IMG/VR virus record: IMGVR_UViG_3300025316_000011
Coordinates: 1-64,000 of that record
DNA: 64,000 nt
Strand: one strand, 5' to 3'
From: a virus
Below the pieces are notes generated by a model, which made no database searches, was not told the origin of the DNA, and was given only the letters and a program-made list of their open reading frames with translations. How positions within the stretch are numbered: position 1 is the first letter of the stretch; every line of letters begins with the position of its first letter. Shown here piece after piece: positions 908 to 53,762 of the stretch. The translations under genes were made by a program, and so were the position numbers.

Positions 908-910
908 GAC

Positions 911-1785: not shown

Positions 1786-1819
1786 CTTTTAATTATTCAC
1801 ATTTTAAAAACCAAACATT

Positions 1820-2226: not shown

Positions 2227-2241
2227 AAACAAAAGAACTAT

Positions 2242-26738: not shown

Positions 26739-28349
26739 TTAAATCCATGCAAGTACATACCACGAAGAAGTAGCGTGGTCACATCTTAGTTTGGCATAAC
26801 CTCCGGCACCTGAAAGTACCAAAGTTGCTACGTCTGCTCCGGTTTTGTCCACAAAGACAGTATCTCCCGCGTTTTTAGCGATAGTCCCCGTATTGGCACC
26901 ATATTGAGATAATTCTACTACAGTCCCATCGGTAAGAGTGGAAATCAATGGTAAAGTAGCGGTTTTTGACCCTCCCGTGGTGTCAAGGGTAATTTGGTTT
27001 GGAAGGTTGGCATCAGTAAAAACGGTATTGGCAATGATGATGTTTGACGATATTACGTTACGGACAACGGCATCAAGTTGCCCCTGAATATCGGATGATA
27101 CGTTGGTAAGGTAAGTTAATTTCCCCGCAGCGACACCCGAAGATACCATTAAGCCACCAGCATCCAAAGCAGGTATTGTCGAGGTTGCCAGCGTAGCCAT
27201 TTTTGACCATGATAAGGCGGCACCCGCAGACACGGAAGCATCCACGACTTTCCCTGTAAGTACCAAATCAGCAACTTCGAGGTCGAGGGATGAATTAACC
27301 CTTAGATATTTGTCTGATGAAGCCCCTAACGCAATGGCAGAGTACGAAGTACCGTTGAACCATAATACCGATTTAGCTGTCACAGTAGATCCTACCACGG
27401 CATCCATAAGCTGTTTAAAAGTAGGTGATATTACCTCCCCTGACGAGTTCATAATCATAGCGCCTGCCCCGGCCCCTGCACCACCGCCTCCACCGGGAGT
27501 AGCATCATATTTGAAAGTTCCTGTCACCCATAAGTCACCGGAGATTTTAACGAGGTATGCTGAATCAGCGGCACCACCAATGCCTAACCGTCCCCTCCAC
27601 GTTGTTCCGTCATAGCAGATAAGGGTAGAACCGTTTAATCCTCCGTTGACACCGGCACCACCATAGATATAGGCAGAACCTCCTGTTTTAGGATTGGATG
27701 GGTCTAATCCCGCCCCACCAACGAAATGAAGGTTTGAGCCATTGTTCCCTGTGGATGTTTTCGGGTTGATGTAAGCGTCAGCAGCATAGGTAAGCAGATA
27801 CGAAGCTGCGGTAACGGGACCTGTCCCCATATCGAGGGAATCCCCTGATGTGACGGGAGTAATAACCGTAGCGGTATCTTTCCATACACTCCCCGACAAT
27901 GCTGAATAAAGTAGTTTTTTAGGTTTGCCGGAATCAGCGGTATCGACAATAACAAGGAAATCCGTTGCTGCCAGGGTAGTCTTTGCTGTCAACGATGTAG
28001 GATCGAAGTCTATCTGGTAGTCAAGCCTGTCAGTTGCGGAAATGGCAGTTACCTTTATACCTTGGTAGGATGAATTACTCGAAAGGAGTTCCGTGCCATT
28101 AACCTGTAATGCCGGGAGATGGGATGGCAACACAACACCGTTACCACTACGGGCCTTACTTACTGCTGTCGTGGCGAGGGTCACGAGCCCCTGAAGTGTT
28201 TCAGTAGCATAGTCCCCGGATGAGACCTTAAAAGGTATGCTATCCATTAAATCCCTGAATGTGTTTTCTGACGGGATATTGTTGGCGTTGAATTTGGTTC
28301 CTGCCGTGGTACGTGGGGAATCGAAGAAAAAAGCCTTGTTGCGTTGCAT
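26739..28349 (-). CDS. tail fibre-like protein (no signal peptide)
   Basis: N-terminal F...IPSENTFRDLMDS anchor-type motif; G/S/T/A-rich body; LTYLTNVSSDIQGQLD segment; beta-sandwich-like C-terminus. Confidence 0.75.
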   Translation of the reverse strand: MQRNKAFFFDSPRTTAGTKFNANNIPSENTFRDLMDSIPFKVSSGDYATETLQGLVTLATTAVSKARSGNGVVLPSHLPALQVNGTELLSSNSSYQGIKVTAISATDRLDYQIDFDPTSLTAKTTLAATDFLVIVDTADSGKPKKLLYSALSGSVWKDTATVITPVTSGDSLDMGTGPVTAASYLLTYAADAYINPKTSTGNNGSNLHFVGGAGLDPSNPKTGGSAYIYGGAGVNGGLNGSTLICYDGTTWRGRLGIGGAADSAYLVKISGDLWVTGTFKYDATPGGGGGAGAGAGAMIMNSSGEVISPTFKQLMDAVVGSTVTAKSVLWFNGTSYSAIALGASSDKYLRVNSSLDLEVADLVLTGKVVDASVSAGAALSWSKMATLATSTIPALDAGGLMVSSGVAAGKLTYLTNVSSDIQGQLDAVVRNVISSNIIIANTVFTDANLPNQITLDTTGGSKTATLPLISTLTDGTVVELSQYGANTGTIAKNAGDTVFVDKTGADVATLVLSGAGGYAKLRCDHATSSWYVLAWI

Positions 28350-28357: not shown

Positions 28358-28948
28358 TTATTTGAAAAGTAACCCTATTCTTACGTTTACGTATGTGCCA
28401 TTGAGGTAAACTCCCCCAATCCCAACTGTCAACTGATCTTGTACTATAATCTGTCCACCTATCCCGATACCAGGAAAGTCTTTGAAGTTTCTCCCGACCA
28501 TTTCAGCATATAACCCCCAATGGAGTAATTTGGCTTTGTAGGCGGGAGACTTACTGAAACAAGTGTCTGTTCTTAATGTTATCCTATCAATTTCTTTTGG
28601 GAATACAAAGTCTGAAAACGATAAGTCGTTAAGGTTCCCTAATATATGTGCCGACCAATGAAACCTGATACCTTTTTGGTTGAAAGTAGAATCATACCAA
28701 TTTTCACTGATCTCTTTTATGATAGTGTCATGGATGATGGTTTTTACTGGAATGGGTTTTATCCTTATTTCAGCGGGAATATGAATAGTGTCATATAATA
28801 TCACTGTATCTGCTTTTGCTGACTTATAGGCCGTCACCTGATCTGAAAGTACATTTATCCTACTATTGGCTGAAATCACTTTGTAGCCAAGGAAACAGGC
28901 CAATGCTATCAAAATTCCTATCACTACGTATGTTGCTATCTGTTTCAT
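28358..28948 (-). CDS. membrane-anchored lysis-module protein (spanin-like)
   Basis: N-terminal TM helix; DTV/DTI/DTI/DST sequons; C-terminal amphipathic beta strands; next to the holin. Confidence 0.6.
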   Translation of the reverse strand: MKQIATYVVIGILIALACFLGYKVISANSRINVLSDQVTAYKSAKADTVILYDTIHIPAEIRIKPIPVKTIIHDTIIKEISENWYDSTFNQKGIRFHWSAHILGNLNDLSFSDFVFPKEIDRITLRTDTCFSKSPAYKAKLLHWGLYAEMVGRNFKDFPGIGIGGQIIVQDQLTVGIGGVYLNGTYVNVRIGLLFK

Positions 28949-28949
28949 C

Positions 28950-29078
28950 TTAATAAATATGAGGTCTTTCTCTTGTGCAAATGCAAAATATGGCTAATGC
29001 GATGATTGCCAACACCAATAATCCCACCCCGAAGTTCGGGGTAGGATTTGATGTGGAGTTTGTTGGTTGCGGTGTCAT
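28950..29078 (-). CDS. 42-aa membrane peptide
   Basis: MTPQPT...FGVGLLVLAIIALAIFCIC; start overlaps the holin stop. Confidence 0.5.
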   Translation of the reverse strand: MTPQPTNSTSNPTPNFGVGLLVLAIIALAIFCICTRERPHIY

Positions 29079-29314
29079 TACGGTTTTTCGATAGTCAACG
29101 GCTGACCCGTTGAGTTCGTGAGGAAATTTTTGACCAAATAGGCAATTCCGGCACCTACCGCAGATAAAACGACTGGTTGCCAAAATACCCATGTGAAGGC
29201 AATGGTCCCTGCCTGTAATGCCTGATACACTCCGATTACTAATGCTGTGATAACAGCAAGGATAAATCCTTTTAATGCATCGAGCCAATTTAATGAAGCA
29301 AAATTTGAGTTCAT
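29078..29314 (-). CDS. holin-like protein
   Basis: 78 aa, two TM helices, LNW.DALKG...AYLVKN pattern. Confidence 0.7.
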   Translation of the reverse strand: MNSNFASLNWLDALKGFILAVITALVIGVYQALQAGTIAFTWVFWQPVVLSAVGAGIAYLVKNFLTNSTGQPLTIEKP

Positions 29315-29337
29315 TGTTTTTGATTTTAAGGTTAATA

Positions 29338-29790
29338 CTAATTGTGTTTAATAATTATATCGGTAATCTTTGTCAAATTTTCTTTAAATAGTTCGGTAAG
29401 TATTTTAACACCACCTTCCGACACACTCATTTTATTTTCAAGGTAACTACGAGTAGTGGAAACTAAGTCCCGGAAGTCGTAAATGTTTTTTTCAAGTTTG
29501 GCGAGTTTAAGTTCATGCTGATTATTGGTTATTTGCCATTCCTTATAAAATACCTGATCGTCTGTTTGAAGTTTGTTGAATTTCTCTGCTAAATTATCAT
29601 GTTTTGTGATAGCTTTTTCAACATCGAGTATCAAAACTTCTTTTTGCTCCATAACGGTCTTTAAAAGATCCGCCACAGACTGTTTAATCTCCTTTTGATC
29701 GGTTTTAAGGTTCCAATAGGTAAGGGAAATAAACCCTACCATCCCGGTTACTAACCCCGATATTATCCAATAGGCAGTAGATTGTTCCAT
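29338..29790 (-). CDS. TM plus coiled-coil protein (lysis module)
   Basis: N-terminal TM helix followed by heptad-rich sequence. Confidence 0.65.
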   Translation of the reverse strand: MEQSTAYWIISGLVTGMVGFISLTYWNLKTDQKEIKQSVADLLKTVMEQKEVLILDVEKAITKHDNLAEKFNKLQTDDQVFYKEWQITNNQHELKLAKLEKNIYDFRDLVSTTRSYLENKMSVSEGGVKILTELFKENLTKITDIIIKHN

Positions 29791-30058: not shown

Positions 30059-30436
30059 TTATTCTTGTGATACCTTGATTTTATAATTTGGCTCAATGGC
30101 ATCTTTGATTGCTTTTTTTAGTTTAATATCGCTAAAGAACCCATTCAACGCAGTCTGTATATCGGCAAACCTGATTTGAATTTTCACCTCTTTTACCAGG
30201 GTATCGCCAACACCGACAATCCTTTTTTTGGTTAGAGTTAGTTCAATGTTTGAACCATTCAGCGAAAAATACGATCCTGAATCGACTGCCTGAGTTGAAA
30301 ACTGTCCAAGGTTCCATTCATAGATAAAACGCGAACCATGATAGGTTGTGTCAAGCACCACACCGGGATTTTTAATGGATTGCCCAAACCCTGATAATGT
30401 CACAAAACAAAGGATAATTAATGTTGTTTTTTTCAT
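30059..30436 (-). CDS. secreted protein with a Sec signal peptide (125 aa)
   Basis: MKKTTLIILCFVTLSGFG|QS; DTT, DSG, DTL sequons. Confidence 0.75.
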   Translation of the reverse strand: MKKTTLIILCFVTLSGFGQSIKNPGVVLDTTYHGSRFIYEWNLGQFSTQAVDSGSYFSLNGSNIELTLTKKRIVGVGDTLVKEVKIQIRFADIQTALNGFFSDIKLKKAIKDAIEPNYKIKVSQE

Positions 30437-30438
30437 AG

Positions 30439-31506
30439 TTAGAATCCTGTTGAGAAAAGTAAAGAATTGAGAAATTTCCATCCTGAGTTAAAGCCCTGAC
30501 TTGTTGAGTTGCTTCCAGCCATCCACTCCCCCCCTGTGGCTGTGGAATAAGATATATTGCAAAATGATACGCGGGTAATACCTGTTGATTTTGTTATGGC
30601 CCACCCTGCCGTACCTGTCCCTGTTAATGTAATTCTATTGCCTGGGGTTCCGTTGATAGATAAGTTTGTAACTGTTTGTGTTGATCCATCTGTAAACTTT
30701 ATAAATCGAGTAACGCTACTATTAGTACCTAAAGTGGTAAATGTATTATTACCGGAAATAGTCATTCCTCCAGTTGTTAGTGTACCCTCCAAGTACACAT
30801 TTTCAAATGTTTTACCATTCCCTTTAAACGCTGGATTACCCGCAGTAAATCGTAAAGTTGACCCTGTTCCTGTGAAAGTGAAATTGCTGCCATTTGTTGC
30901 AAAGTCTATTGCCCCGTTTGCACTAAAATTAACATTTGCTGCGCCTGTAATAAGTGTTGAGGGATTGGTAGCGTCACTGATAGCAAATGTTTGAATAGTA
31001 CATGGCTTCCCATTCAAATTAATAGTGCCAATAGCTATTCTCATGCCTATACAACTAAGATTATCCATTATCTTTATCTCAGCACTTCCTCCTGACTTAT
31101 AAAAATTTCCAATAGAAATACCGTTGCTGTACCAAGTAGCCGAAGAAGCATTCTGCATGAGAAATGTTGATGCCGTTATTGGCATTGTACCACTTAGATA
31201 AACATTCCCATAAATATTAACGTTAAAATTAGTACCATTACCTACAACCGTTCCTCTGAATCCATGACAATTCCAATCCAAACAGTTTATAATTCCAGTA
31301 ATAGTGCAGGTGACATTCCCTGCTGCATAAGTAAAATAAAGATTATCAGAACTTGTAGGAAATGCAAGTGCAGTAGTCCATGATGTAGTATCGGTAGCGT
31401 AATTTGATAAGGTTGTACTGTTCCCATTCACGTTCTTCCAATAGTAATTCGTTGAAAATACGTTAAAAGAAATCAGTATTAATATTACAGTGGTTAGCTT
31501 TCTCAT
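30439..31506 (-). CDS. beta-helix tail-tip/fibre-like protein with a Sec signal peptide
   Basis: MRKLTTVILILISFNVFS|TNYYW...PTSSDNLYF; G/T/N-rich solenoid sequence. Confidence 0.75.
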   Translation of the reverse strand: MRKLTTVILILISFNVFSTNYYWKNVNGNSTTLSNYATDTTSWTTALAFPTSSDNLYFTYAAGNVTCTITGIINCLDWNCHGFRGTVVGNGTNFNVNIYGNVYLSGTMPITASTFLMQNASSATWYSNGISIGNFYKSGGSAEIKIMDNLSCIGMRIAIGTINLNGKPCTIQTFAISDATNPSTLITGAANVNFSANGAIDFATNGSNFTFTGTGSTLRFTAGNPAFKGNGKTFENVYLEGTLTTGGMTISGNNTFTTLGTNSSVTRFIKFTDGSTQTVTNLSINGTPGNRITLTGTGTAGWAITKSTGITRVSFCNISYSTATGGEWMAGSNSTSQGFNSGWKFLNSLLFSTGF

Positions 31507-31507
31507 G

Positions 31508-34500
31508 CTATTTAATATCTGCAATCTGTGAACATATATAAACTCCCCCAATATACTTTACAATTAGTAAGTCATTCGCCCCACTCGTATTTGTATAAAC
31601 AGGGGTTACGCCACCGGGATAAGTAAACGTTGGGCTTGTAGCTACTGTGTACGTTGTGGTTGATGCCTCATGTGTCATTAATACAGACACTATCTGTCCA
31701 GCCACCATATTGCTAAACGTATAGGTGCAATTTCCTGTCCTTGTTACTGTGAAATTATTGGAGGTAGAACAATCAAAGGTTATTGCCGTTCCTGAATTAC
31801 CGGATGCAACAACATCTGAATATAACCTACCTGTAACATTTACATTTCCCGTAAACTTTGCAGCCACATTAGTAGTTGCACCTGTTGGTGCCGCAACCTT
31901 TAATCCATATCCAGTTGTTACATTGGTCAATGCCTTTGTCTCAACTGCGACTGCACAAGACTCTGTTAATGTTGTGTTGGTTCCTCCTGTTGGTGGTCCC
32001 TGAATAACCACTCCATCAGCATCAGATATTGTCGTTGCACTCGTAGCTGTTAGTGTTGGGGTGGAAATTATAACGCTTCTCTGATTTGTAATTGCCCCTC
32101 CATTATGCTGAAGAGTACGAGCAAGGTTAATATTTACATCTGTTACCTCACTTCCCACATCAACACCTGATTGTGATCCTCCCGTCACGGATACTATATT
32201 AACCCCCGATCCCCCTGTAATTGATGGTTGTGTAACAATTAATTTTGGCGTGGTAATTTGAGTTGTGAAAGTTGGCGAACTTAAATTAGCTTTTAATACT
32301 AACTTGGTTGTCATGTCAAAATAGGCTGCAAATTTCTTATTTACCCCTGTATCAGATGGTAATGATCTTAATCCTATTGCAGCCATAGTAGTGTAATATG
32401 CAGCAAGTTTTTTATTGGCTGATGTATCGGCATATAACCAGTATGAGGACATCCCTGAAATTGGTTGATAATTTGCTCCCCACTCGTTTAATCCATCATA
32501 CATTGCCTTGGGGGTGACATACCCATGATGGTAAACGTTGCTATCAGCAAGATTAACATAAGTTCCCAATAGGGTGTGAGCATCAAAATATTTTCTGGTT
32601 ATATATCCATAACTTGTGTTGGTATTACTATCTGCACGTTTAGGGAATAATGTAGCAGAGTGATAGTCCCCCCAATTAAAGGCTGTGACACCTTTGTTCT
32701 GTTTGGTTCTCCAATCAGTAAGAGTATCATTATTAATGGCAATAGTTCCCGTAGTTGTGATCGTTCCTCCTGTTAATGGTGAGGTTGTTGAAATTGATGT
32801 TACCGTTCCTGAACTTGATGATTTATGGTCATTAAAATATTTTAATGTAATTGCATTAGCATTTGTATTTGAATCTGCTTTACTAAAATACAATCCTGCA
32901 TGATTACCCCACCCATAAACAGTATCTAATCTATCTATTGAATTTCTAATGTTATAAAAGGGTTTATTGGAATTAACATTAATCATTGTTTCGGGTATAA
33001 CATTATCTGCAACAATAGAAAAATAAGCATAATCAGTTGTTGCTGTCACACCTCTAATGAAAACATGATGAACATCACTTGCTAATCTAATCGCTTGTGA
33101 AGACGATCCCGTTTGTTCTGATATATATGATCCACCGTCAATTACACATGAATCACCAGAAATAAATAAAACCAAACCATTTCCAGATGGGTATTTGGGT
33201 GAAAACCCACTGCAATTAATTAACTTAGCACCCTTAGTAATTCCAGCTAATGAGTTTGTTCCAAATGCGGATATTTGAAATGCAGCAGGTGCTTTTGATT
33301 CCGCTGAACAGTTTACAAATGTTCCTCCTAATGATGATATTCCTTCTAATCCCCCTTCAAGTGCAACACCTACGCACCCATAAGCTATTGAATTATTATA
33401 TCCCACCATACCCTCATCTGTATGAGATAATCCCTTACAATAATATGCTATTGCACTATCGTAAGTGGGAGTTCCATTACCATTTAAAAAACCAACACCA
33501 GAATTTGCAGAAATTCCCATATCATCGCCTTCACCAATACAGTTATATGCTCTTGCCAATTTACCTAAATTGGCAAACCCTGTTTGACCATGTGAAATAC
33601 CCTCGCAAAATCTTGCCTCGCCTTGATTATCGAATGCCGCAGAATAAGGGTGTGTTGTTTCTGCGGTAGATTTAATTACTAATCCGCCCTCATTATAAAT
33701 TCCAGATTGAACTAATGATGTGCCATAGCAATCATCTGCTTTCCCACCAGCATCAATATGAATCCCGTATCCCGAATTACTGTTTACCCAACAATCTACA
33801 GCATACCCATTGGCACTAACATCTAATCCATAATTGCCTCCTGTTAACTTCGTAGCAAGTATTTTTGCACCTGTCAGCTTTCCACTTATCAATGCTCCGT
33901 AATTAGTTGTTGATTCAAATGTGACGTTGTTACAAGTTATTTCACTGCTTGTATTTGTGAGCCATAAACAGACATACTTTGTTGATTTAAAATAAAGATT
34001 TGACAATTGACAAATTACCTTTGTTCCATTATCCTTTACTGCCGTTAATGCTGTTGTATCAATAATGGTTACATTTTTGCCATATCCAAAGATATTAACC
34101 CCATTTTTTAGGGTAATCTTTTCGTAATATGTACCGGGATAAATGACGATTGAATAAGTTGAATCTGCCACAGTAAGTGCTGAATTTACTGTAAGGTATT
34201 TCTGACCCGAACCAACATAAAGTATTTTGTTTCCAATAGGCTGGAATGTCAATCCTGCATGATAAGGAGTTAAATATCCTCTAATACTATCTTCCTTATG
34301 AAGAAGCAAAGCTGTATCAACTGAAGGAAGTTGTGTTAAGTCATATTGTGTTGCATATCCACCCATTCTTACACTATCTTTCTTATGAACAAGTAAAGAT
34401 GTGTCTGTTGCAGGAGGGATTGTAGGCTTATCTGTTAAAGAATTATACGACTTTTCATCGAGATTAGCAAGGCTATCATGATTACTCATAGTTCTATAAG

Positions 34501-34822
34501 AACCTTTGGGTTGATATAATGTAGCAGCCTGAGTTTTTCTCAGGAATAACATAGTGTCAATTATCCCACCCCCAATAGACCCCACAGAGACAACCCATCC
34601 CATTCTGTACATGGTAGTCATGGAATCATTGACGGAAGTATTAGTATGAGTAAACTGATACTGCCTACGAGGTACGCTATCGGATAGTACAACGACCTGT
34701 GTGGCAGCAAAGATAGCCCCTAACTTAGTTCTGTTGTTTGGTAAGGTGAGAATAGGTTTTGTGTTCTGTCCCGCCGCCATAAGGCTAAAAAGGCATAAAG
34801 CTATAAATACTAATTTTCTCAT
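31508..34822 (-). CDS. 1104-aa tail fibre/tailspike-like protein with a Sec signal peptide and a pectate-lyase-like beta-helix
   Basis: MRKLVFIALCLFSLMAAG|QN; LYVGSGQKYLTVNSAL...IYPGTYYE beta-helix cap; GTVTSI..PLTGGTIT fibre motif; C-terminal adaptor-type domain. Confidence 0.8.
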   Translation of the reverse strand: MRKLVFIALCLFSLMAAGQNTKPILTLPNNRTKLGAIFAATQVVVLSDSVPRRQYQFTHTNTSVNDSMTTMYRMGWVVSVGSIGGGIIDTMLFLRKTQAATLYQPKGSYRTMSNHDSLANLDEKSYNSLTDKPTIPPATDTSLLVHKKDSVRMGGYATQYDLTQLPSVDTALLLHKEDSIRGYLTPYHAGLTFQPIGNKILYVGSGQKYLTVNSALTVADSTYSIVIYPGTYYEKITLKNGVNIFGYGKNVTIIDTTALTAVKDNGTKVICQLSNLYFKSTKYVCLWLTNTSSEITCNNVTFESTTNYGALISGKLTGAKILATKLTGGNYGLDVSANGYAVDCWVNSNSGYGIHIDAGGKADDCYGTSLVQSGIYNEGGLVIKSTAETTHPYSAAFDNQGEARFCEGISHGQTGFANLGKLARAYNCIGEGDDMGISANSGVGFLNGNGTPTYDSAIAYYCKGLSHTDEGMVGYNNSIAYGCVGVALEGGLEGISSLGGTFVNCSAESKAPAAFQISAFGTNSLAGITKGAKLINCSGFSPKYPSGNGLVLFISGDSCVIDGGSYISEQTGSSSQAIRLASDVHHVFIRGVTATTDYAYFSIVADNVIPETMINVNSNKPFYNIRNSIDRLDTVYGWGNHAGLYFSKADSNTNANAITLKYFNDHKSSSSGTVTSISTTSPLTGGTITTTGTIAINNDTLTDWRTKQNKGVTAFNWGDYHSATLFPKRADSNTNTSYGYITRKYFDAHTLLGTYVNLADSNVYHHGYVTPKAMYDGLNEWGANYQPISGMSSYWLYADTSANKKLAAYYTTMAAIGLRSLPSDTGVNKKFAAYFDMTTKLVLKANLSSPTFTTQITTPKLIVTQPSITGGSGVNIVSVTGGSQSGVDVGSEVTDVNINLARTLQHNGGAITNQRSVIISTPTLTATSATTISDADGVVIQGPPTGGTNTTLTESCAVAVETKALTNVTTGYGLKVAAPTGATTNVAAKFTGNVNVTGRLYSDVVASGNSGTAITFDCSTSNNFTVTRTGNCTYTFSNMVAGQIVSVLMTHEASTTTYTVATSPTFTYPGGVTPVYTNTSGANDLLIVKYIGGVYICSQIADIK

Positions 34823-34824: not shown

Positions 34825-35643
34825 TTATAGTTTTTCAAAGATAAATTCTATGTTAAAGATAGCGTTGTTCCAATCGTCTCCCACCCCTGCATGGTGAAGG
34901 TAAATAGTTGTAGGAGTTGTCAGGGAGAAAGTCTTATTCACCGCAATGGTAGTCAACCCTTTCGTAGTAAGATCGAGCAGGTTCATCCCTGAACAGGCAA
35001 AACATTCATTACCTCCCGAAGTGATCCCCATACTTAGCTGCGCCCAATTAGCGGTCTTATTCTCAAAGACAACATCATTGAATTTGTAGTTTCCCGGAAT
35101 CAAATTGAGAAATACCGAATCGGCTGAAATGTTGGTTTTGGTTGCTTTGACGGTACAGCATGAATTGGTGATATTGTTTATGATATATGTAGTAAATGAC
35201 TGCCATACATTAACAGGGACAGTAGTTGTGGCAAATCCCGTCGTTTGACCTGAATTACCCCTTATGTGGAATGGGTTCACCGCACCCTGGATTATCATGC
35301 TGCCGATACCTCCATTTGAAGTATCTCCAATGTACACGTTGATAAGGTCGGCAATGGTCTTGCCTTCAATCCCGGTACATTGTAGTTGCTTTTGGATTTT
35401 GTCAATGCAATAGAGTGTCCGGTAATAACTTAATGGATAAAACAAGCCATTGATAAGGTCTATTTCCCGTTGCTGTTCGATAATATCCAAATAAAACCAT
35501 AGGTTATGAAGCAGCGATAATCTCCGGGATTCAGTAACCTTTTTACCCATCACGAAGTCACGTATCATGTCATTGGATATCGACACTACGTAAGGGTGCG
35601 CTATTTGCCAATATGCCGTTTGCTGTTGTTCCCGGACTGTCAT
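34825..35643 (-). CDS. tail hub/fibre-attachment structural protein
   Basis: Cys-containing helical N-domain, GIGSMII...F.I motif, position in the tail operon. Confidence 0.55.
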   Translation of the reverse strand: MTVREQQQTAYWQIAHPYVVSISNDMIRDFVMGKKVTESRRLSLLHNLWFYLDIIEQQREIDLINGLFYPLSYYRTLYCIDKIQKQLQCTGIEGKTIADLINVYIGDTSNGGIGSMIIQGAVNPFHIRGNSGQTTGFATTTVPVNVWQSFTTYIINNITNSCCTVKATKTNISADSVFLNLIPGNYKFNDVVFENKTANWAQLSMGITSGGNECFACSGMNLLDLTTKGLTTIAVNKTFSLTTPTTIYLHHAGVGDDWNNAIFNIEFIFEKL

Positions 35644-35645
35644 GG

Positions 35646-36734
35646 TTAACAGGTTATATTGATGTTATTGCTCCCTCCGCATAATCCGCAGCGGTCGGTG
35701 ACTATCTTTAACTTGTCGATCATTTGACCGATGTCAGTCAAAAGATCACTCTCGCTTTTAGTGATAGGGTATAATCCTACATACTGGCTTTTCTGTAAAT
35801 ACACCATTTGGTTGATGCTCGTCACCAGTTCCCGTATCATCAGCAAGTCATGTTTTTTGGCCTTATTATCATCACAGTCGTCACATGGATCATCGCAGGT
35901 ACAAAGTGTGTACTTAAACAACTTCGTGTAACAGGCATTGGCTTTACATGTTTCAAGGATAGGTATGGTAACGACAATCCATGATGTAGGAGTAGGTATA
36001 TGCTGTTGGTTGCCATTGTTGACATAGGCAAGTTCAAATGTGTATGACCCGTCACCATAGGCAGAAAGGTCGATTATCACCGTAGTCCCGGCAAAGGGCA
36101 ATCCCTCAACCAACAACGTACCATCGTAGTTATAAAGCCTTGTCCGAACAACGACACACGATATGTTTATTGCTACCTCCCATTTCAGGCAGTCCGTCTT
36201 GGAAAGGACAAAAGCATCTCGGTCGATAAAGGTTATTGCCGTGGTTGCTATCGAAGTTGCCCCTACTGCCGCAACGGACAACCCTGCCAATGCGTAAATA
36301 TCGGCAATGGTAAGGGCGGTATATACATAACTCCCTATTGTAAGCGGTTGCCCTACGACAAGCGGGGAGAAATCAGTAACATCGAGTGCGGGATTGGTCC
36401 CCGAAGATGAAGGGTTGATAGTCCCGGTAGTAGTCTTGATATAGAATACCCCGTTATAAAACACTATCCCGAATTGACCGAAATCAATATTATTCAGTGC
36501 ATCCCATGTGTAGTTATACAGGGCATAGACTGATATCGTCTGCTGCGCCCCTACGGGGACACTCCATGAATCGGCATTGGATTGGTCAACATTGAAATCG
36601 GCGGCAAAGGCATCACTTGACCAGAATACCATTATCCCTGTCAAATCGCGTTCCCCCGCGGCATAAGGGGTAATGTCGCTGATACCTAAGTACCCATCGA
36701 GTGACTTGTCTAAAGAAATTACGGGTGTAACCAT
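35646..36734 (-). CDS. tail hub-like structural protein
   Basis: Beta-rich N-terminal part plus helical C-terminal part with CTCDDPCDDC and CGLC, resembling crAss-like hub proteins. Confidence 0.55.
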   Translation of the reverse strand: MVTPVISLDKSLDGYLGISDITPYAAGERDLTGIMVFWSSDAFAADFNVDQSNADSWSVPVGAQQTISVYALYNYTWDALNNIDFGQFGIVFYNGVFYIKTTTGTINPSSSGTNPALDVTDFSPLVVGQPLTIGSYVYTALTIADIYALAGLSVAAVGATSIATTAITFIDRDAFVLSKTDCLKWEVAINISCVVVRTRLYNYDGTLLVEGLPFAGTTVIIDLSAYGDGSYTFELAYVNNGNQQHIPTPTSWIVVTIPILETCKANACYTKLFKYTLCTCDDPCDDCDDNKAKKHDLLMIRELVTSINQMVYLQKSQYVGLYPITKSESDLLTDIGQMIDKLKIVTDRCGLCGGSNNINITC

Positions 36735-36739
36735 GTCCA

Positions 36740-36771
36740 CAAAATTAAGAAAAATTCATACTACTGTCAAA
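36740..36771 (-). promoter_or_regulatory. consensus Bacteroidota sigma70 promoter for the tail/lysis operon
   Basis: - strand TTTG (36771-36768), 20-nt spacer, TAATTTTG (36747-36740); ATG at 36734. Confidence 0.7.
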
Positions 36772-39700
36772 TTAAGGAGTGGTTAAGGCTACTGCCCTCT
36801 TATACCCTCCGTACACTCCTAATGTCCCTGCGAGAACGCTGAATTTCTTCTGTCCAAGTCCTACTTCTGTAAGTCTCAATGTCGTACCTAAAATTGGAAT
36901 AGGGTTTTTCATCCATTCTTCGGAAGCATAACCAAGCATAAGTTCGCTGTAAAGGTATGAATACTTCTGCTGGTCCTTCTTTGTCAATGTCCCGATGAAA
37001 TACACCAACCCGGCTAAAGCCCCAGCATAGACAAGGCTGCGGCCTAAGTTGATACGCCTGTGAGTAGGTAAACTCTGCCAATACTTTAACGGGTCTTTCA
37101 TGTTTTTAAAATCCCGTAAGTCGTGGATTACGTGTCTCCATGACTGAAAATGACCTTCCATGATATTCATTTCCCATTTTGTCATGGTGTTGCCTTCTTC
37201 ATCAAGATATGGGACCCACCTTCCCCCTCCAATGGTTTCACCTGTCTTTGCATTGACACCAAGATTATTCAAATGTGGCATCATAAACATTCTGAACATC
37301 CCGACCATTTTACCCTTCCACCCGTTTGTCATCAATGCCTTTGTAGCATCGTCAATCCCTACATATACGAACTGTGAAGCATACCATTTGTAATGATTGT
37401 TCACAATATCCCAATCGTCTCCCCTGTCAGGGATAATGTCGCTATCACTCATTTCACCCTGTGACTTTAACCTTTCCGTAAGGGCATTATACATAGCCTT
37501 CTGTTTGGCAGATTGGCTCCCATCGGAGTTGAAGTACCTCTTGTCTTTAAATCGGTCCCATGCTAAGTCCCCCGACTTAGCATCCACAGAATAGGCTTCC
37601 CATGCCCCGTTATGGATAAGTTGAGACACCAGAGAATGTACCCGCATCGTTTGGTCAACGGAGTTATCAGGTAACATCCCCCATGCTGCGGATAAAGCAT
37701 TTTTCTTAACACTTAGGTTCTCCATCGGAGAATGAAGTAGGCTATCCTCCGTCTGATTCCAATAGTGAAACTTCCGGGCAATGGCCCATACCTTTCTACG
37801 GTTGGAGAACATTTTACCTGCTGCCTTTAAGTGGTCAGCCATAGTAGGTAGTATTTCACTCCTTAATTCCTCCGGCATTCCAATATTAGCGGCTGATTGA
37901 GCAATGGCATTAACGGTTGATTTGAATGCTCCCGCGATAAGAACTTTAGGCGCCGTTACGAACCTATACATCAGCAAAATGTTAGTCATGCCACGCATGG
38001 CGGTATTGGCTACGTCGGCTGTTTCCACGGGACCGATAAGCGGAACATCAATAGTTCCTCCGTTATCCCGTTTGTCTGCATTCTGTTTATTGACATAACG
38101 GTTAAAGTATTCCTCCATAAATTCCCTTGTATGGCGAAGGTTTACGTTGTTGGAATTTTCCCATCCGGTCATTAAAGCCATCTGCGTATTATACTCCGGC
38201 AGGAACTCATTGCCAATCATTTCATCCCTGATACCTTTAAGCATAAAGTAGTTGCCGATTTTCTCAATGTCGTGAGAAGCCTTTTCGTTAAGGTCAGGGT
38301 CAAAAAGTTCAAAATGTGAAGTATTCCCATCCCTTACCTCTACCAATCCTATCTTTTCATGTGTCTTTGAAGGGTCAAGCATTTGTTGGTTAATACTGCT
38401 GAACAACTTGGTCATGCTTTTATCCTTGGTGACATCGGTGAAAATCTGGTCCGGTGCTTGGATATTGTCAAAGTATTTCTTCAACCCCTCTTTGAACTTA
38501 CCCTGCATAAGCATTTCGTTGGCTGATTTGTCGATTACAGGAATATGACCTTTTGGTGCACGGGAGTTCATGTCGTTAAACTGCTGCTCGGCATCCTCCC
38601 ATGTAAATTCGCTGATATTCAAATCATCATGCTCGCTGCCTATTTCGGTAAATTGATGCTGCCAGTAAATGTCTGCTATGGTACGCTTTCTCATTTCATC
38701 GTACATGGCATTGGTGAGTTCAAGGTCGGCATCGGTAATCTTCCCTTTGTCATATAATGGCTTTGTTTCGGGGTCATTCTTGTCCATGTGGAGAACTGTT
38801 CCCCGCACCGTTACCTTATCACCCTTTTTGTAGGATTTCCCACCATAGGTCAAGTCCTTACCCGCAACAACGTCCATATCCTTATAGAGATGGTCGAAGT
38901 ATAAGTTTCCTGCGGTTCCGACAAATGGCTGTGCTTTAATGCCATGTTGCGCCACTACCTTCTCAAGCAATGGGAATATCTTTTCATGGTATTTCCAATA
39001 TGCCGATACGGTACGTTCGATAGACATTTGCATGGCCCCTGCGGAAGCCTGGATAAAGCTGCTGCGCTGTACCAATGGAGAAGGAATGTTTTCAAGTCCC
39101 CCCCCTTTTATGTCAGCGATTTGGTTTGCCGTCTCAATATGACCAAATCCTGTTCCCGGCCTTTTGAGTTCATCCAACGTGGCACTTACAAGTTGATAGA
39201 TAGGGTCAGCAAACTTCTCTGTGTCGCTGCCTATCTTATGGTCTAATACCCTCTGCCATTCTGTTAAGGCTTTTATCTTTGCCTGTTTTGAACCTTTGGT
39301 GAGTAAGTCCCGCCTTGCTACGACAGATTCCCTTTTCGTGTCAAATTCTTCGTAAGGGTCCATCATTTCTTCCTGATTGGAGAGATATTCACTAAGCTGG
39401 TTGATGAAAGGGGTGCGCAGTTTATCATTCTCTATCCGCTTGTTTTGGATGATACCACGGATAGTGATGCTCCCTACCATATCCATAAATTCAGGTTGTG
39501 CCTTTAAAATGTCAAGTATCTTACCAATATCCTCAATGCTGTTTACCTGATAAGGCTTAACGCTGTTTTTACGTGTCTCAATGACTGATAACTTTCTGAA
39601 GGTAGCATCCATGCCTAACGCTTGCATCCCAATCATGAGTTTCCGGTAGCTATACATGCTGTCATTGTATTCTGCGGGGCCGCCTAATTTGCGATATTTC

Positions 39701-42700
39701 TTATCATCCATGATATCCCCCAAAATGTTCCGTTGCCTACCAATGACGGCATCCGTTCCCTGACCATAGGAGGTAACATCGAATATAGATACGTCAGCCT
39801 TCCCGTTTTTGTCAAATCCATGAACAACAACGATAGGGTCATAACCTTTTAAATCGTCTTTATACAATGACCTGAAACGTGGGTCTGCGTGTTCCGGCAG
39901 TTGGGAGTACCTCACTACGTCCATGGCTCCCTGTTCAATACCAAGTAGGTTGATAAGGGTTTTAAGTACCTGTGGGTTGTAGTCTTTTAATCCTACCGTT
40001 GAAGCAATATCAGAAATGGTAGCCTGTTTACTGTTATGAGTAGCAGATAACCCAATAGGGGTATTGGCAAAAGATATGAAGTTCTGTATAAGTTCAGGTA
40101 CTTTCCCGTCAATCATAGGATATTTGGGTGTAACCTGGTTATGAATGGCTTCTTTTAACTTCTCGTCAGTATCGTATTTGTCAGCAGGGAAAACAGTCTG
40201 ATGGGTTCCTTCGTTGTAATAATAGTTACCCCTTGCATTTACTCCCGTCTTTTTAACTTCATTGAAGATTTCATCGGTGACTTCTTCCGGTGTGAGTTTT
40301 GAGAACCGTAAAGAATCAGCGTGATCTGATGCTAAATGAAGTGTAAGGTCGCTAATGTCCAATACAGGCATCTTTGCGGATCTGCTTTCAGCCTTACCCA
40401 TTTTGTCAATGACTTTCATCTCGTCAGGGGTGAATGTGAACTTGTCTCCTTTTAATACCTGATTGGTGAAATCTTTAAAGAACTTTTCTAAGTCAGGGTT
40501 TCCAATGTCAAACCCGTCTTTTAATCCGAGTATGCCTTTTAACCCATTCCATAATTCGGTGACATAACGCTTCACGTTCTCATAGATACGTGTGGCGAAG
40601 GTTTTATCCGTCTCCGGTATCTTACTGTCACTTTCCCGTAAAAAGCGTTCTACGGCAGGAATAGAGGTAAACCCTCCCATGGTAGCCATCACTTCGTCAA
40701 TGTGCTGCTGCCCGTCAAGTTCGGGATAAGTAATCTTTATCTGTTCCGATAATTTGGCAACATCGTTCCCCCCCTGACTGATAGCATCCTTCACGTAGTT
40801 TTCAAATTCAGCATACTTTTCGGGATTACGTGACTTATACACGGCATTCCATATATGCTGTAACTCATGTACCCCTGTGGATGATGTTACCTTGTCAATG
40901 TTGTAATGTATTCCCTGTCCATCGACATATCCCCTTGCTGTTGGGCTAATACCTTTTTCCCGTAACGAATCGGAATCTTCCTTAATGAAGTTAAGTTGTT
41001 CAAACTGACCTTTTATTTTGTCAAGCAGGATTTCAAATGATTGTTGAACAACACGGTTATCTTGGATTTTGTTAAGGTCAATAGGCTTTTGAAATAGGGG
41101 CAATCCCTGTGCTACTTCATCACGCATTTTGGGGGTAATGTCAATAGAATGTTGAGTTGTTGAACCATTAATTTTACGTTCGGATTCTATGGCAATTTCT
41201 TGTAATGTCTTTTGTATTGCTTCCTTAGATAGTTGATTCCCTACATCTATCGGAATTGTAGATAGAACGTCATCATTCCATGCACGTAATTGGTAGTCTC
41301 CAGTATGAGGTGATTTAACCACAAACGAATCTGTAAAATCATTTTCATTTATAAGCCTTTTTGTACCAATATCTTTTGTTTTCACACTCCCCTTGCCCCA
41401 CAAACCTTCTGCAACCTGACCGACAATGCCTAATTTGCCTTCTGCCGGACTTCCGTAGAAACCTATCATGCCTTTGCCACCAACCTTAATATCCTGACCC
41501 GTCAAACTACGCAAAGTTCCTTTTGGTTCTTGTGCCATAAGTTTTTCAGCAACGTCCTTACCAATAATATCAGGCAAATCTTTAGGTTGAACTCCCGTTC
41601 TCTCTATTACAGTATTTCCATCATGGTCGTATGCTTTAAGATTGCTACCGCTATAATGAATTTCGTTTATTTTCTTTGACAAATCATACCGTTCATTCTG
41701 CTGTTCACCCGTTGTCCAACTGATACTTTCTGCACCTTCTTTTATAGCCTGTTTCAACGCAACTTTCAATCCAAGTTTTGTCCATGCTGTCGTTTCGGTG
41801 ACGAAAGGGGCATGAGTATGTTTACTCTTGTTAGCATCTTTATTTAAAGTTTCTAACGCATTTTTAATCGCTTCTTCTTTTGTATTTCCTGAATCAAACA
41901 CGAAATCTTGGGTTGCCCTGTCATACCCTTTCGGGGCAGTTATTTTCCAATAATCCTCAAATTTAGTTGGAGGTTCTACTATGAATCCTGTTGGTAATTC
42001 AGTTATGCTGTTGGGTTCTTTAAACCCTTCTTTTTTCCCTTTCTGCCCCCAATCTGACTGAATTTCATCAACAAATAAAACTTTCTTTCCGTTAACGTCA
42101 ACACGGGTGCTTAACCTTAAATGTGCCAAAATGTTATGTTCATCGAAATGGGATGAACGGTAATAAAAATCCCTGCTTGCTAACACATACGAACGTGTAT
42201 TGCGCTGTTGTGCATCGTTGAGTTCATCGTAAGGTACATTGTACTGTACGAAAGCCATTTGTTGAAGTTCATCGGTAGTAGGTTCCTTCGGTGGTAACGT
42301 TATCAATACCTCTTTGTAGTTCTCTTTGTCTCCGGGGAGTTGGTACGCCGAATATTTTGTTTGTGATTTTTCACGTTCTTCCTTACTTGTAAGTTTAGTC
42401 CTTATTTCATTATTTCTTAATTCTAATTTCACAAGTTGATCGAATGCTTTTTCTGGTATATATGTCGGTTTCTCCCCTCCATTTTTAATGAAATGATCTA
42501 CGTCACCCCATATTTCATCTGCAAAATGTGTGTAATTAGAATCCCGTTCAACTCTACTAAAAATAGCATTTTTTGCGTTTATGATTAAATCATATTCTTC
42601 TTGTAATTTAACCTCATTATCTCCTTTTGAAACTTCCCGAATATCAATCCGGTTATCCTTCATCCATTGCTGGATTTCCCCTCTACTGAAAGTCTTTGAA

Positions 42701-45700
42701 GGGTTAGCCTTTAACATATCATCTAACCCTGTATAGGTGAGTTCATCGCCCTTTACTCCCCGTGATCGTAACTGTTCGAGCCATTTGTTGCCAGTGAGTT
42801 TTTCCGCCTTAATATCCAAAACGGCTTTTTCAACGGGAGAATAGAACCCATTGATAACATCAAGGTATGGTGATAATGGCTTTACCGTTGAGGTATTACT
42901 CATGGTCCCATCGGTAGTAGTCTTTTCGGAATCAAACCCTCCATGCGGATAGCGTTTGTAACCTTCGCCACCGGCATAAGCCTTCATTTCCGTAGAAAGG
43001 CGGGAATATTCATTTTGGTCATTACCTATCCCATCAAGGTATCTGCCAAAGGCAGTAGATTGTTCATGTAACCCATTAGGCTTATCGTAGAACTCTTTTG
43101 GGATGATATTGATAGCAGAACCTTGTTTTGATTCAAGTCCGTTTGTGAGCAATATCTGATAGGCATACTTTGATTGTAAATCTTCCGGCAGTCTCTTAAA
43201 TTCATCCTGTAAGAACTCAACAGTTTTTGGGTCAGTTTCACTTATAAGTGAATTTCCCCTGAAACTACGGACAAACATGTTGTCGGTGATGCTGTCATAA
43301 AATTCACCAGGATTTCTTACCCCTATCTTTTCAAGTTCCCCTATGGCTACGTTTTTAGGCATATCGGCAATGCCTTTTAACCATGATTGGTATTTGTCAA
43401 ACCCTTCAACATATTCCTGCCTGTCTTTGGCTGAATATAAATGATAGTCCGTCCCGTTAAGGTCAATGGCTTTTTCCCCTATTGACTTCTTAAAGTACCT
43501 GTCAAGGAAAAGGTCATGGTATGGCTTACCTCCACCAAATTCATCCATTGCATGGTGTTCGATATTGGTAAGTACCTTGTTAACCTCTTTTGACGGGTCA
43601 AGTTCCGTCCGGGTAGCCTTGCGGGACAAATCAGGCATTTGATCTTTAAACCTGCCATGGTCAATATCATAAATCAGGTTGTCAATATGCTTCATGTCCG
43701 GCTGATACCTGCCAAACATCTTATTGACCATATCCATGAATGCCTGAAATATCCCTTTCGGGGTGTACCACGGGGACTTCTCCTTCTTTTCAAATGGTTT
43801 TTCAATGCCTGTCTTACCGATATAATGAGCTATCCATTCCTCTGCTTGTAGGTCGGTAATCTTTTTGCCCCGCCATTGTGGGGAATAACGCTTCATGGCG
43901 GTTTTGGATTCATTCATTATGATACCCTTACTTGGTTCATCCAAAAAGTAGTTATATACCATGTGGAAAAACTCATGCTTTGGTGATGTATATACAATCC
44001 CATCCCTCTGCATTTCAAGTCGTATCCTGCCATTATGAAGGTAGCCAAATACCTGTTTCCCGTCAATATTCAAAAACCCGATGCCATGTTTGTCCAGACT
44101 TTCACGAATATCAGCGGCAATGTCGGGATGAACGTTGGAATCTAACCAAGTGTTGAGGGTTTCTCGGCTGATTCTGCGGGTGTCTGTTTCACGGGATTCT
44201 TCAAAGATTGGCCCGTTTTCTTCTCCATTTCCATCCGCTGGTGCGCCACCCTCATTGCCAAGATTTGACTTGGGGTATACTTCGAGAACTGTTTTTTCAT
44301 CTGATAAATATTTATATAGGTTATTATAACTTTCTTCTGAAAATGGGAACCCTTGGAACTGATCTTTGTTGGCTTCAATTGATGATAACAGTTCTTCTTT
44401 TGTTGCCGTTGAAATATCAATCCCGTTATGTTTAACAAAAGTATCTAATGTCGCAAAGTCAGGGATTTCCGCATAAGCAGCCTTAATACGTTTTTTGCCT
44501 TCATTGATACTCATTCCCGTCTTTTCCTTATACTTGCGGGATATTTCCTTTTGGATTTCAGGAACTTTATCTTTAAATACGCTTTTGTCAGGATTGGAAT
44601 TGATAAAATCAATAACATCGTCAGGAGTTATATTTGAGTTATAACCCTCATTCTCTTCGTTTACAAATAAATCAATTCCTTTTAAATTTGTGTCATTTGA
44701 TTTATCAAGCAACCAATTTTTTTCTATCGGATGCTTCTTCTTAAACTGGCCTTTCTTTCTCCCTGACTTTTGTTCTACTTTAAGGGTGTTTTCATCCCCA
44801 AAACGAACATAACTCTTATATGAGAATTGTTCAGCTTCCAGCCTTTCCTGCCATGGTTGTAATCCACTTTGGGATGTCAACACTACCTGATCGTAGGCAG
44901 CAATTAAATCGTTAGGTGTAGCATACTTCGATTCAACCGCCCATTGAGGAAACTGTTCTTCACTGATATTTTCTGAATCGTTTTTCCTATCCTGTAACAA
45001 AGATTCAACTTCCGATGTTCTTGCGGCACGAATGGATTGCTCACGAGTAGTAAGCGTTTCTCCAGCAAATAACTTGTCCGCAATGGTGTTTAACCTTTTA
45101 TCAGAAACTACGTTGTTGTCAACAAACTCCTTATATTCTTTGGCAGGAACCTTTTCATTTTTGTCGGCTTTAATCTTTTCCTTTTCCTGATTTACGAAGT
45201 TAATAGCTTCTTCTGCACTTCCTTCACCTTTGCCAAATGTCACGGGAGGATTCGATTCCGGCCCCGCTTGAACAACTTCACCGGGTTTTATGTCATTAAT
45301 GAATACTGACGTATGTGGCAGCAAATCTAAGGTGTTGGTAAGGAATGTACCTGCCCTGCCAGAGAGTATGTCTGAAAGCCCGTATGCCTTGTCAAACGGC
45401 AACTCAACATTGCCAAGTTCGGATGATCTTTCGATAATCCTGTCAAACATTTTGGCATATCCTTCTTTGTTGGCAAACTCTTTTTTAAGTTTCAAACGAT
45501 AACCAGCAGCAGCGGTATCATATTCCCATTTGCCAAAATCCCCAATGATTTTACCTATCTCTTTATTCTTAAATTGCGCCCTGTTATTATGAATAAAATT
45601 GAAAAGCATGGTCCCGTCCATCTCCCCGTTTTGGGTAAGGTATGTGTCGGTATCCTTCCATGCCTTTAAAATATCGGCAATGGATTTCCCTTCGGCAGCG

Positions 45701-53345: not shown

Positions 53346-53762
53346 TTAGTTCTTTAACGATAATGGTTTTTCACCTTTAATGGCTTTGGCTTTTTCCTCT
53401 ACTTTGAATTTTAATGATTGTGTTTCTTCTGCGGTCGGGGTGCATTTGCCTAAGATAAGAGCATAACGGATACATGGATAATCAATACCATCCATGATAA
53501 CATACTCTGTCCCACGTTCGAGGATTTCCCCCGGAAGATAAACAATATCCCCTTTTTTAATGTCCATGTCGTATTTGATACCTCCATTCATGTAGTAAGG
53601 AGAAACATACATTACTAATCCCCGATAGGGATGATCTTTGAAATTACCCTTTGATGCGTAAGGCAGTTGAGTATTAGGATTGATAAGTGGGCTTGATGTT
53701 GTTGGTTCGGTGTATATGGGTTTCACCACTACGTAACCATTTAAAGGCTGATACTCTGTCAT
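53346..53762 (-). CDS. co-chaperonin GroES (Cpn10)-like protein
   Basis: YQPLNGYVVVKP...RGLVMYVSP...IKKGDIVYLP...DGIDY...ILG. Confidence 0.8.
   Translation of the reverse strand: MTEYQPLNGYVVVKPIYTEPTTSSPLINPNTQLPYASKGNFKDHPYRGLVMYVSPYYMNGGIKYDMDIKKGDIVYLPGEILERGTEYVIMDGIDYPCIRYALILGKCTPTAEETQSLKFKVEEKAKAIKGEKPLSLKN

Follow-up and report, generated by a model that had tools for sequence, protein, structure and literature searches.

Three consecutive genes of a probable Bacteroidota phage, here called A, B and C, code for fibre- and tailspike-type proteins that are predicted to leave the cytoplasm by the Sec pathway, and the proteins of this phage that carry such leaders are rich in a motif used by the host for O-glycosylation. 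The genes lie on the minus strand of a 64,000-nucleotide stretch of DNA (the window), which comprises bases 1-64000 of the 81,022-bp IMG/VR virus record IMGVR_UViG_3300025316_000011 (CheckV completeness estimate 64%); the late genes of the record are on this strand. Gene A (31508..34822) codes for a leader-bearing fibre/tailspike mosaic of 1104 residues. Gene B (30439..31506) codes for 355 residues, a leader followed by a predicted right-handed parallel β-helix, and gene C (30059..30436) for 125 residues, a leader and a small domain without recognizable fold. Whether the whole chain of export, periplasmic maturation, glycosylation and attachment to the virion applies to the trio is, in our estimate, an even question, and its steps differ in strength.

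Predicted signal peptides of A, B and C

The sequence-only reading that preceded this analysis had quoted cleavable-looking N-termini for all three proteins, and each is present in the sequence as quoted. The starts chosen there also stand, because they are fixed by stop-ATG junctions of 1-2 nt: the ATG of A lies 2 nt past the stop of a gene for a 272-residue protein, that of B 1 nt past the stop of A, and that of C 2 nt past the stop of B. The trio is chained in this way at the end of the virion operon. Longer TTG or ATG ORFs were rejected, as they would run into the upstream genes.

Leaders were called by reading N-termini by eye and with a home-made heuristic, which asked for a K/R n-region, then a hydrophobic run of 10 or more residues with no charge among them, and small residues at -3/-1. 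The heuristic flags 7 of the 94 open reading frames (ORFs) of the 81-kb record, A, B and C among them. The other four are proteins of 112 and 236 residues encoded beyond the window, a membrane-anchored protein of 196 residues and one probably spurious ORF of 56 residues. The genes for the 112- and 236-residue proteins, which gave no family match, adjoin the terminase region (record positions 77294-77632 and 77634-78344), and Gln follows the predicted site in both. A, B and C each show the n/h/c architecture: the h-region, some 12-15 residues long and so shorter than a membrane anchor would need, precedes small residues at -3/-1. The signal peptide predicted for A by the heuristic is residues 1-18 (34769..34822, minus strand), modelled as a separate helix over residues 2-16; cleavage after AAG would expose Gln. 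Cleavage of C after GFG would likewise expose Gln. In B the predicted leader is residues 1-18 (31453..31506, minus strand), placed by alignment with leaderless homologues, and the cut after VFS would leave Thr instead. Four of the five clean leaders of this phage have Gln at +1. This preference, the Q-rule, is described for the signal peptidase I substrates of Bacteroidetes (PMC5837995, PMC10653852). From the Q-rule leaders and a related locus in a Bacteroidota metagenome-assembled genome (MAG), described below, we infer Bacteroidota as the host phylum.

None of the three leaders is followed by a lipobox Cys. No Pfam or NCBIfam model of the type IX C-terminal sorting domain (CTD) matches A, B or C at E ≤ 0.1, although a very divergent CTD might have been missed. 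Superinfection-exclusion lipoproteins of the T5 Llp type, which we take to be encoded next to receptor-binding genes, would be expected to have the lipobox Cys. Without a CTD match or a Cys at +1, identities as type IX cargo or as lipoproteins were set aside for all three.

The same leaders recur among relatives. An exhaustive HMMER scan with A gave 1362 relatives (E ≤ 1e-3), the majority of which align with residues 850-1000. Leader-like N-termini occur in 25 of the best 152 (query included), and by eye Gln comes directly after the cleavage site in 20 of these 25; for example, P0002, P0003, P0005 and P0131 have the same kind of leader and then Gln. Relatives of C with a complete N-terminus all have leader plus Gln (5 of 5). 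The B family has 65 homologues. Of 64 scored, 41 begin at a conserved M-A-x-R-Y-W motif, 5 were flagged as leader-bearing and 18 are fragments or other; a sixth leader-bearing homologue, P0029, was recognized by eye. An alignment of the B family picked out 80 IMG/VR loci, of which 64 begin at the motif, one (L003) has a leader, seven are open at the 5' end and eight are other. The leaders of B, P0008, P0009 and P0019 appear in the alignment as an extra segment ahead of the conserved R-Y-W start, and the predicted cleavage in B (after VFS, leaving T-N-Y-Y-W) coincides with the first residues of the leaderless homologues. The residue at +1 in P0008, P0009 and P0019 is T, A and A, respectively. 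This is the picture to be expected if a family that is normally cytoplasmic had acquired a cleavable export signal at its front. Because leaders are kept in relatives and the B-family leader exactly precedes the leaderless N-terminus, the export proposed in the sequence-only reading is well supported, and both cleavage of the leaders and export of A, B and C are very probable.

Two of the loci found in these scans have unusual surroundings. In L003 (positions 1-4903), a Bacteroidales long-tailed phage contig, glycosyltransferase-like (two) and lipoprotein-like genes precede the leader-bearing B homologue, which is followed by a repeat-rich protein of 503 residues with a hydrophobic leader from an internal ATG. 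A scan of IMG/VR with a fibre-motif alignment (A6) gave six weak loci. One of these, L092 (4300-8175; a viral contig with G+C 0.53), codes for a fibre-like protein of 1291 residues after baseplate-like genes; its leader ends in G-W-A and is not followed by Gln. Leader-bearing fibres may therefore extend beyond phages of Bacteroidota.

Sequon content of the predicted exported proteins

Substrates of the Bacteroidota general O-glycosylation system and of the Q-rule are described as cellular proteins (PMC8550257, PMC8729774, PMC12871550, PMC5837995, PMC10653852), whereas A, B and C are late phage proteins of fibre type. The sequon is D-(S/T)-(A/I/L/V/M/T), and expected numbers were obtained by shuffling the residues within each protein. 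A recount of Asp residues in A agrees exactly with the hand count that first drew attention to the motif: 10 of the first 13 precede S or T, and 9 fit the sequon. The companion figure for a leaderless fibre-like protein of 536 residues encoded nearby, 9 D-S/T among 35 Asp, is also correct. With the S+T content of A (0.217), finding 10 of 13 has a binomial P of 3.5e-5, in a test picked post hoc. The dense sequons ascribed to the exported proteins exceed the shuffled expectation in A (12 versus 4.7, P 0.003) and in C (2 versus 0.4, P 0.06); B shows no excess, with 1 where 0.8 would be expected. Nine of the 12 sequons of A (at residues 48, 66, 89, 116, 149, 169, 178, 220 and 255) fall within its first 260 residues; residues 19-260 (34043..34768, minus strand) comprise the N-terminal domain and first stalk. 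If S/T and hydrophobic substitutions are tolerated, every member of the family keeps the two sequons of C, even at 37% identity.

Excess is seen in other exported proteins of this phage as well. The membrane protein of 196 residues (28358-28948) has 4 sequons versus 0.6 expected (P 0.001), the 112-residue leader protein 2 versus 0.1, and the 236-residue leader protein 3 versus 1.0. The pooled exported set contains 24 versus 7.5 expected (3.2-fold), and with A removed 12 versus 2.9; neither number was reached by any of 2000 shuffles. All other ORFs of at least 60 residues, after exclusion of seven overlapping and probably spurious ones, have 56 sequons versus 67.5 expected (0.83).

The motif is similarly distributed among the relatives of A. 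Those with leader and Gln (n = 20) have 185 sequons versus 81.2 expected, an observed/expected ratio (O/E) of 2.28. For nine control motifs in the same proteins O/E ranged from 0.44 to 1.27, and D-(S/T) followed by a non-hydrophobic residue gave 0.84. Leader-bearing relatives without Gln (n = 5) have an O/E of 0.62 and leaderless ones (n = 127) of 0.86. An O/E of at least 2 occurs in 7 of the 127 leaderless relatives, several of which (P0164, P0145, P0180, P0004) seem to belong to the leader family but to be truncated. The 185 sequons fall into 112 context clusters, 74 of them singletons; the two commonest are conserved fibre motifs with 12 and 9 copies.

Exported proteins of a cellular genome show the same tendency. 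In a 400-kb portion of the Bacteroidota MAG, proteins with leaders are enriched too (O/E 1.61, n = 56; cytoplasmic-type proteins 1.09, n = 153), but at lower density: 0.44 sequons per 100 residues versus 1.13 in the exported set of the phage, about 2.6 times as many. In the phage crAss001, which is compared with this one below, the leaderless fibres gp22-26 have 16 versus 13.2 expected and the membrane-anchored gp27 has 4 versus 0.4.

The excess of sequons is genuine; it is specific to the full triplet and goes with leader-bearing proteins. It fits host O-glycosylation of exported proteins, and on these counts we lean slightly towards the trio being O-glycosylated by the general system of the host.

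Several further proteins depart from expectation in either direction. Sequons are depleted in the 4884-residue protein (36772-51426; 6 versus 15.8) and in a muzzle-like protein of 1416 residues (55849-60099; 1 versus 4.7), where D-S/T dipeptides as such are rare (4 versus 13.9). An early-region protein of 183 residues with an N-terminal membrane anchor (18312-18863), which is outside the exported set, has 3 versus 0.6 (P 0.018). The sequon-enriched 196-residue protein and crAss001 gp27, a 'lysis regulatory protein' (L091 14094-14696), are without clear similarity to each other (best BLASTP E 0.16).

Protein architecture

Searches of Pfam, PHROGs, NCBIfam and PDB sequences gave nothing usable for A, B or C. 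Gene A encodes a mosaic in the order leader, N-terminal domain, stalk repeats, residues 193-651, second stalk, residues 850-985 and residues 985-1104. The only relative over residues 1-92 is P0131, itself leader-bearing. Residues 193-651 (32870..34246, minus strand) are 73% identical to P0002 and probably form a right-handed β-helix of the pectate-lyase kind. Leads to this fold come from the annotation of relatives (P0006 has PF12708) and from the ESM Atlas (Beta_helix/Pect-lyase 0.91); structural similarity is low, with Z no higher than 8.4 (polysaccharide lyases), and the model is poor in this region. The second stalk contains the motif G-T-V-T-S-I. Residues 850-985 (31868..32275, minus strand) are, by best-matching ranges, a fibre domain common to most of the 1362 relatives. 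Residues 985-1104 (31511..31870, minus strand) are modelled as a β-sandwich. The full-length model has a pLDDT of 47.9 and is confident only in this C-terminal domain (residues 1000-1104, pLDDT 72-93), which weakly resembles the C-terminal domains of baseplate and tailspike proteins of phages (Z 7.7-7.8).

For B, a model from a 38-row alignment (pLDDT 90.4, pTM 0.86) consists of an N-terminal leader helix and then a right-handed parallel β-helix. VIA-align matches with Z of 15.8-14.0 over about 255-298 residues include an autotransporter passenger, phi29 gp12 and the Phi92 colanidase, and in the same Z range CBA120 tailspikes, Klebsiella phage depolymerases and polygalacturonase. B is as similar to the autotransporter passenger as to the phage tailspikes and depolymerases. 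Foldseek gave no match at E ≤ 0.001, only weak β-helix rows. On the model, B can be assigned with confidence to the tailspike-type β-helices. For C neither a recognizable fold nor a family was found. The idea that B and C resemble a pair of fibre/tailspike plus tip accordingly holds for the β-helix of B and not for C. A complex prediction between the C-terminal domain of A and B plus C gave no verdict (score 0.02).

Against 50,697 phage records, megablast and tblastn with A gave no match; tblastn with a leaderless B homologue matched only two freshwater phages, in unannotated genes, and with P0005 only a motif of 50 residues in cyanophage fibre proteins. Single-protein scans of IMG/VR with A, P0002 and a 364-residue protein encoded upstream of A recovered no relatives.

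A recurring cassette

The C-terminal domain of A is found at the end of other leader-bearing proteins of many lengths (P0096, P0141, P0148, P0158, P0176, P0186 and P0206). In three further places, L083, L086 and L087, it is followed by leader-bearing genes that are B-like and C-like. L083 is a contig end of a freshwater Bacteroidota MAG, where B and C are 63% and 66% identical to those of this phage. The trio there is followed by a methyltransferase fragment (a short Dam-like ORF) and ordinary bacterial genes including an RND efflux operon (L083 1-3700), and no terminase was found in the MAG. L083 may represent the end of a prophage, a chimera in the assembly or a cassette that stands on its own. 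L086 and L087 are on the same IMG/VR contig, which has the gene order of a long-tailed phage. The trio comes after a tape-measure-like gene for 1100 residues (PHROG E 5.4e-4) and two genes for about 545 residues each, with no other fibre gene after it; in L087 the middle gene codes for a different leader protein, of 217 residues. The trio of this phage has a G+C of 0.37-0.38, below the genome (0.41) and also below neighbouring genes. Because the trio recurs at L083, L086 and L087 and is lower in G+C than its genome, the C-terminal domain of A together with B and C appears to behave as one cassette that moves between unrelated Bacteroidota phages, the N-terminal part of A being variable.

Phage identity and comparison with cultured phages

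The record appears to be a divergent crAss-like phage of Bacteroidota, apparently of the same order as crAss001. This assignment is made because the large terminase subunit (TerL), portal and major capsid protein (MCP), all encoded outside the window, have PHROG matches (E 1.3e-40, 1.1e-42 and 1.2e-21, respectively) to families that we take to be crAss-specific, and because the muzzle-like protein of 1416 residues, inside the window, has a match near the cut-off to Pfam crAss_MUZ PF25731 (E 1.7e-6, 26.9 bits; cut-off 27). With tblastn the MCP had no match in the 50,697 phage records. Both this phage and crAss001 have fibre- or tailspike-type genes followed by lysis genes (putative in this phage), and polygalacturonase/tailspike-type domains. 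The crAss001 fibres gp22-26 differ from the trio in that they have neither a leader nor a sequon excess. It has been reported that the N-terminal 26 residues of gp22 attach it to the tail hub (PMC10172136). Docking by the extreme N-terminus would be blocked by an uncut leader.

Cultured Cellulophaga phages provide the precedent for leader-bearing virion proteins. In phi18:3 (a podovirus of the Pachyviridae, KC821620) gp085-087, and in phi10:1 (a siphovirus of the Assiduviridae, KC821618) gp091-094, are annotated in the records as 'structural protein' on the basis of experimental tandem mass spectrometry (MS/MS) proteomics. The paper behind these records is reportedly Holmfeldt et al. 2013. All seven proteins start with a leader and Gln, and the same is true of gp079-083 in phi46:3. 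The leader runs lie between tail genes and genes for small membrane proteins plus a glycosyl hydrolase. Like the trio, then, phi18:3 and phi10:1 have consecutive Sec leader genes between tail and membrane/lysis genes; in these two phages Gln follows the leader throughout, and some relatives are annotated as pectate lyase. Unlike the trio they are sequon-poor, and they have no detectable similarity to it, marine Flavobacteriia as hosts and other family affiliations. The sequence-only reading had left open whether the exported proteins join virions or act in some other way; the MS/MS annotations lend indirect support to the first option, and on this analogy association of A, B and C with the virion is fairly likely.

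The first 102 residues of phi46:3 gp080 (L119 8980-9285), a leader and N-terminal domain, are 90-91% identical in phi13:2, phi19:1, phi19:3, phi10:1 and Nekkels, while the rest of the protein differs; this module tracks the host genus and not phage family or morphotype. Sequon depletion in the Cellulophaga phages (phi46:3 gp079-083, L119 7344-15946; phi18:3 gp085-087, L120 4348-10040) is the opposite of what is seen in the A family. Both departures could mean that the periplasm recognizes the motif, with selection acting in favour of it in one case and against it in the other.

Other known systems

In the textbook view, all parts of a tailed-phage particle, the fibres among them, are put together in the cytoplasm. 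A literature search over article full texts turned up no account of fibres of tailed phages that are exported by Sec or O-glycosylated. The trio shares β-helix/fibre modules and a place in the virion module with known tailspikes and tail fibres, and departs from them by the export leaders on all three proteins. The nearest account is of Porphyromonas gingivalis prophages, where leader proteins have a predicted signal peptidase I cut that exposes Gln, as in A and C (PMC10367356). The authors of that work regard the Q-rule leaders as an adaptation to host secretion, and the proteins, of unknown function, as possible modifiers of the host surface (PMC10367356). In the part of the account available, they are not described as fibre-type and have no link to virions or sequons (PMC10367356). 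A second parallel is in Bdellovibrio bacteriovorus, whose MAT fibres are phage-fibre-like trimers with a signal peptide followed by a conserved β-rich N-terminal domain, a combination reported for all 21 of them (PMC10769870). Fibres of this kind are therefore able to fold once Sec has exported them (PMC10769870). Unlike A, they are encoded by the bacterium and used at cell or vesicle surfaces, with no Q-rule or sequon context (PMC10769870). No MAT fibre is among the sequence relatives of A.

Proposed pathway and alternatives

In the proposed pathway A, B and C would be late, co-expressed parts of a host-recognition apparatus, translationally coupled to virion genes. They would be exported by Sec, lose their leaders to signal peptidase I of the host (with cuts after AAG, VFS and GFG) and fold in the periplasm, where the new N-terminal Gln of A and C would probably be cyclised. 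The general system of the host would O-glycosylate mainly the first 260 residues of A and the two invariant sites of C. A would be a long fibre with an N-terminal domain, stalk repeats, a probable depolymerase-type β-helix, a second stalk and a C-terminal β-sandwich. C would be a small partner, and co-occurrence suggests that an A-B-C assembly might be held through the C-terminal domain of A. Only when downstream lysis proteins break the inner membrane would the appendages meet cytoplasmic particles and ride on the virion. More tentatively, and with somewhat less than even confidence, many Bacteroidota phages of unrelated morphotypes (crAss-like phages, other podoviruses and siphoviruses) may mature Sec-exported, pyroglutamate-capped and, in some lineages, O-glycan-coated fibres outside the cytoplasm and attach them at lysis.

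A number of observations weigh against this pathway. The trio of L083 abuts bacterial genes in a MAG without a detected terminase, which would fit a cassette that is not part of a virion. The leaderless 536-residue fibre is mildly enriched in sequons (7 versus 3.5 expected, P 0.05), and B has no excess. Recurring fibre motifs hold 73 of the 185 sequons in the leader-bearing A relatives, and these proteins are related to each other; some of the excess may therefore be structural and inherited. When the trio and neighbouring proteins were compared by BLASTP with those of phi18:3, phi46:3 and crAss001, nothing fell below E 0.02, and the Cellulophaga precedent is an analogy. MS/MS of purified virions may also catch co-purifying envelope or vesicle proteins. 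The leader-bearing structural proteins of Cellulophaga phages are sequon-poor (3 versus 9.7 in phi18:3; 3 versus 15.6 for phi46:3 gp079-083) and B lacks an excess; glycosylation is thus no general feature of exported phage fibres. With leaderless fibres in crAss001, the cytoplasmic route is the known one in the order (PMC10172136). Finally, a periplasmic fibre would somehow have to find a tail efficiently.

The alternative that survives best shares the coupling, export and modification steps with the proposed pathway and differs at the joining of the particle. The trio would be exported and never become part of a virion; it would serve as an envelope depolymerase, mask or destroy receptors (against superinfection or sticking to debris), or have a role in release. 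The leaders and the evidence for export apply to it equally, and the Q-rule proteins of P. gingivalis phages have been read as modifiers of the host surface (PMC10367356). In L003 the leader-bearing B homologue sits beside glycosyltransferase-like and lipoprotein genes, away from tail genes, and the bacterial surroundings of L083 point the same way. The low G+C of the trio is often seen in mobile cassettes, and the leaderless 536-residue fibre could be the true virion fibre. However, the genes are coupled within 1-2 nt to late virion genes, and a promoter/terminator scan around the trio found signals at chance level only, whereas exclusion genes are usually early or independently expressed. 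The stalk modules of A, common to phage fibres, would be needless for an enzyme that acts in situ. At L086 and L087 the trio fills the slot after tape-measure and distal tail genes with no other fibre gene after it, and in two cultured phages MS/MS picked up leader proteins that are encoded at this place. In addition, a signal peptidase I leader alone provides no surface route in Bacteroidota, and neither a lipobox Cys nor a type IX CTD was found. We consider this alternative rather unlikely.

Less likely again are exported virion appendages that carry no glycans, where the sequon excess would be an inherited by-product of fibre repeats (N-H-D-S-L, D-T-L-x-x-W-R-T). The two commonest sequon contexts are indeed such motifs, the leader-bearing relatives are related to one another and their counts not independent, and the unenriched B, the mildly enriched leaderless fibre and the sequon-poor Cellulophaga proteins are all compatible with this view. 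It is improbable all the same. The third, hydrophobic position is needed, with no comparable excess for D-(S/T)-other or for mirrored and neighbouring control motifs, and 74 of the 112 contexts are singletons. Exported proteins that are not fibres, crAss001 gp27 among them, are enriched too, the sequons of C are invariant to 37% identity, and the leaderless relatives and crAss001 leaderless fibres show no excess.

That the hydrophobic N-termini are uncleaved anchors, assembly or trimerisation helices or artefacts of start choice, with ordinary assembly in the cytoplasm as for canonical crassvirus fibres, is very improbable given the fixed starts, the short h-regions with small residues at -3/-1 and, in four of the five clean leaders, Gln at +1, the leader placed exactly before the conserved N-terminus of leaderless B homologues, the same pattern in 20 relatives of A and 5 of C, and a sequon excess, confined to leader-bearing proteins, that makes sense only outside the cytoplasm.

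Neighbouring genes

On from the gene for the 1416-residue protein, the operon continues with those for 4884, 364 and 272 residues, then A, B, C, a 62-residue ORF, three small membrane proteins and the leaderless fibre-like protein of 536 residues (26739..28349, minus strand; recognized as an ORF). The 272- and 364-residue proteins (34825..36740, minus strand) are, from their junctions, translationally coupled upstream of A. They had been called hub proteins, an identity that finds no significant match in Pfam, PHROGs or NCBIfam. As a crAss-type tail-hub pair they were rejected: there is no search support, and synteny with crAss001 puts hub genes upstream of the muzzle gene. The three small membrane proteins of 150, 78 and 196 residues (28358..29790, minus strand) have N-terminal or paired hydrophobic segments and no family match in Pfam or PHROGs. 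By analogy of position with crAss001 gp27-30 and phi18:3 gp088-092 they are a probable lysis cassette. A GroES-like gene (53346-53762; phrog_3188, E 3.1e-7) lies within the virion operon, and cpn10 genes are likewise found near leader-bearing structural genes in Cellulophaga phages.

Implications

If the proposed pathway is correct, a Sec-routed and possibly host-glycosylated fibre module would be a new step in virion morphogenesis, and the virion would wear a host-made glycan cloak on its receptor-binding gear. Phages of different types could then exchange cassettes such as A-B-C, since these would mature separately from the particle. The pathway could also explain fibre disulfides, pyroglutamate caps and glycans as stabilizing features in gut, soil and water. 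Existing virion MS/MS data can be re-read with this in mind, and the pathway is testable in cultured Cellulophaga, Flavobacterium and Bacteroides systems. It would bear on the prediction of host range and on immune and lectin recognition of gut phages, and engineering of Bacteroidota phages would have to keep both the leaders and the host glycosylation.

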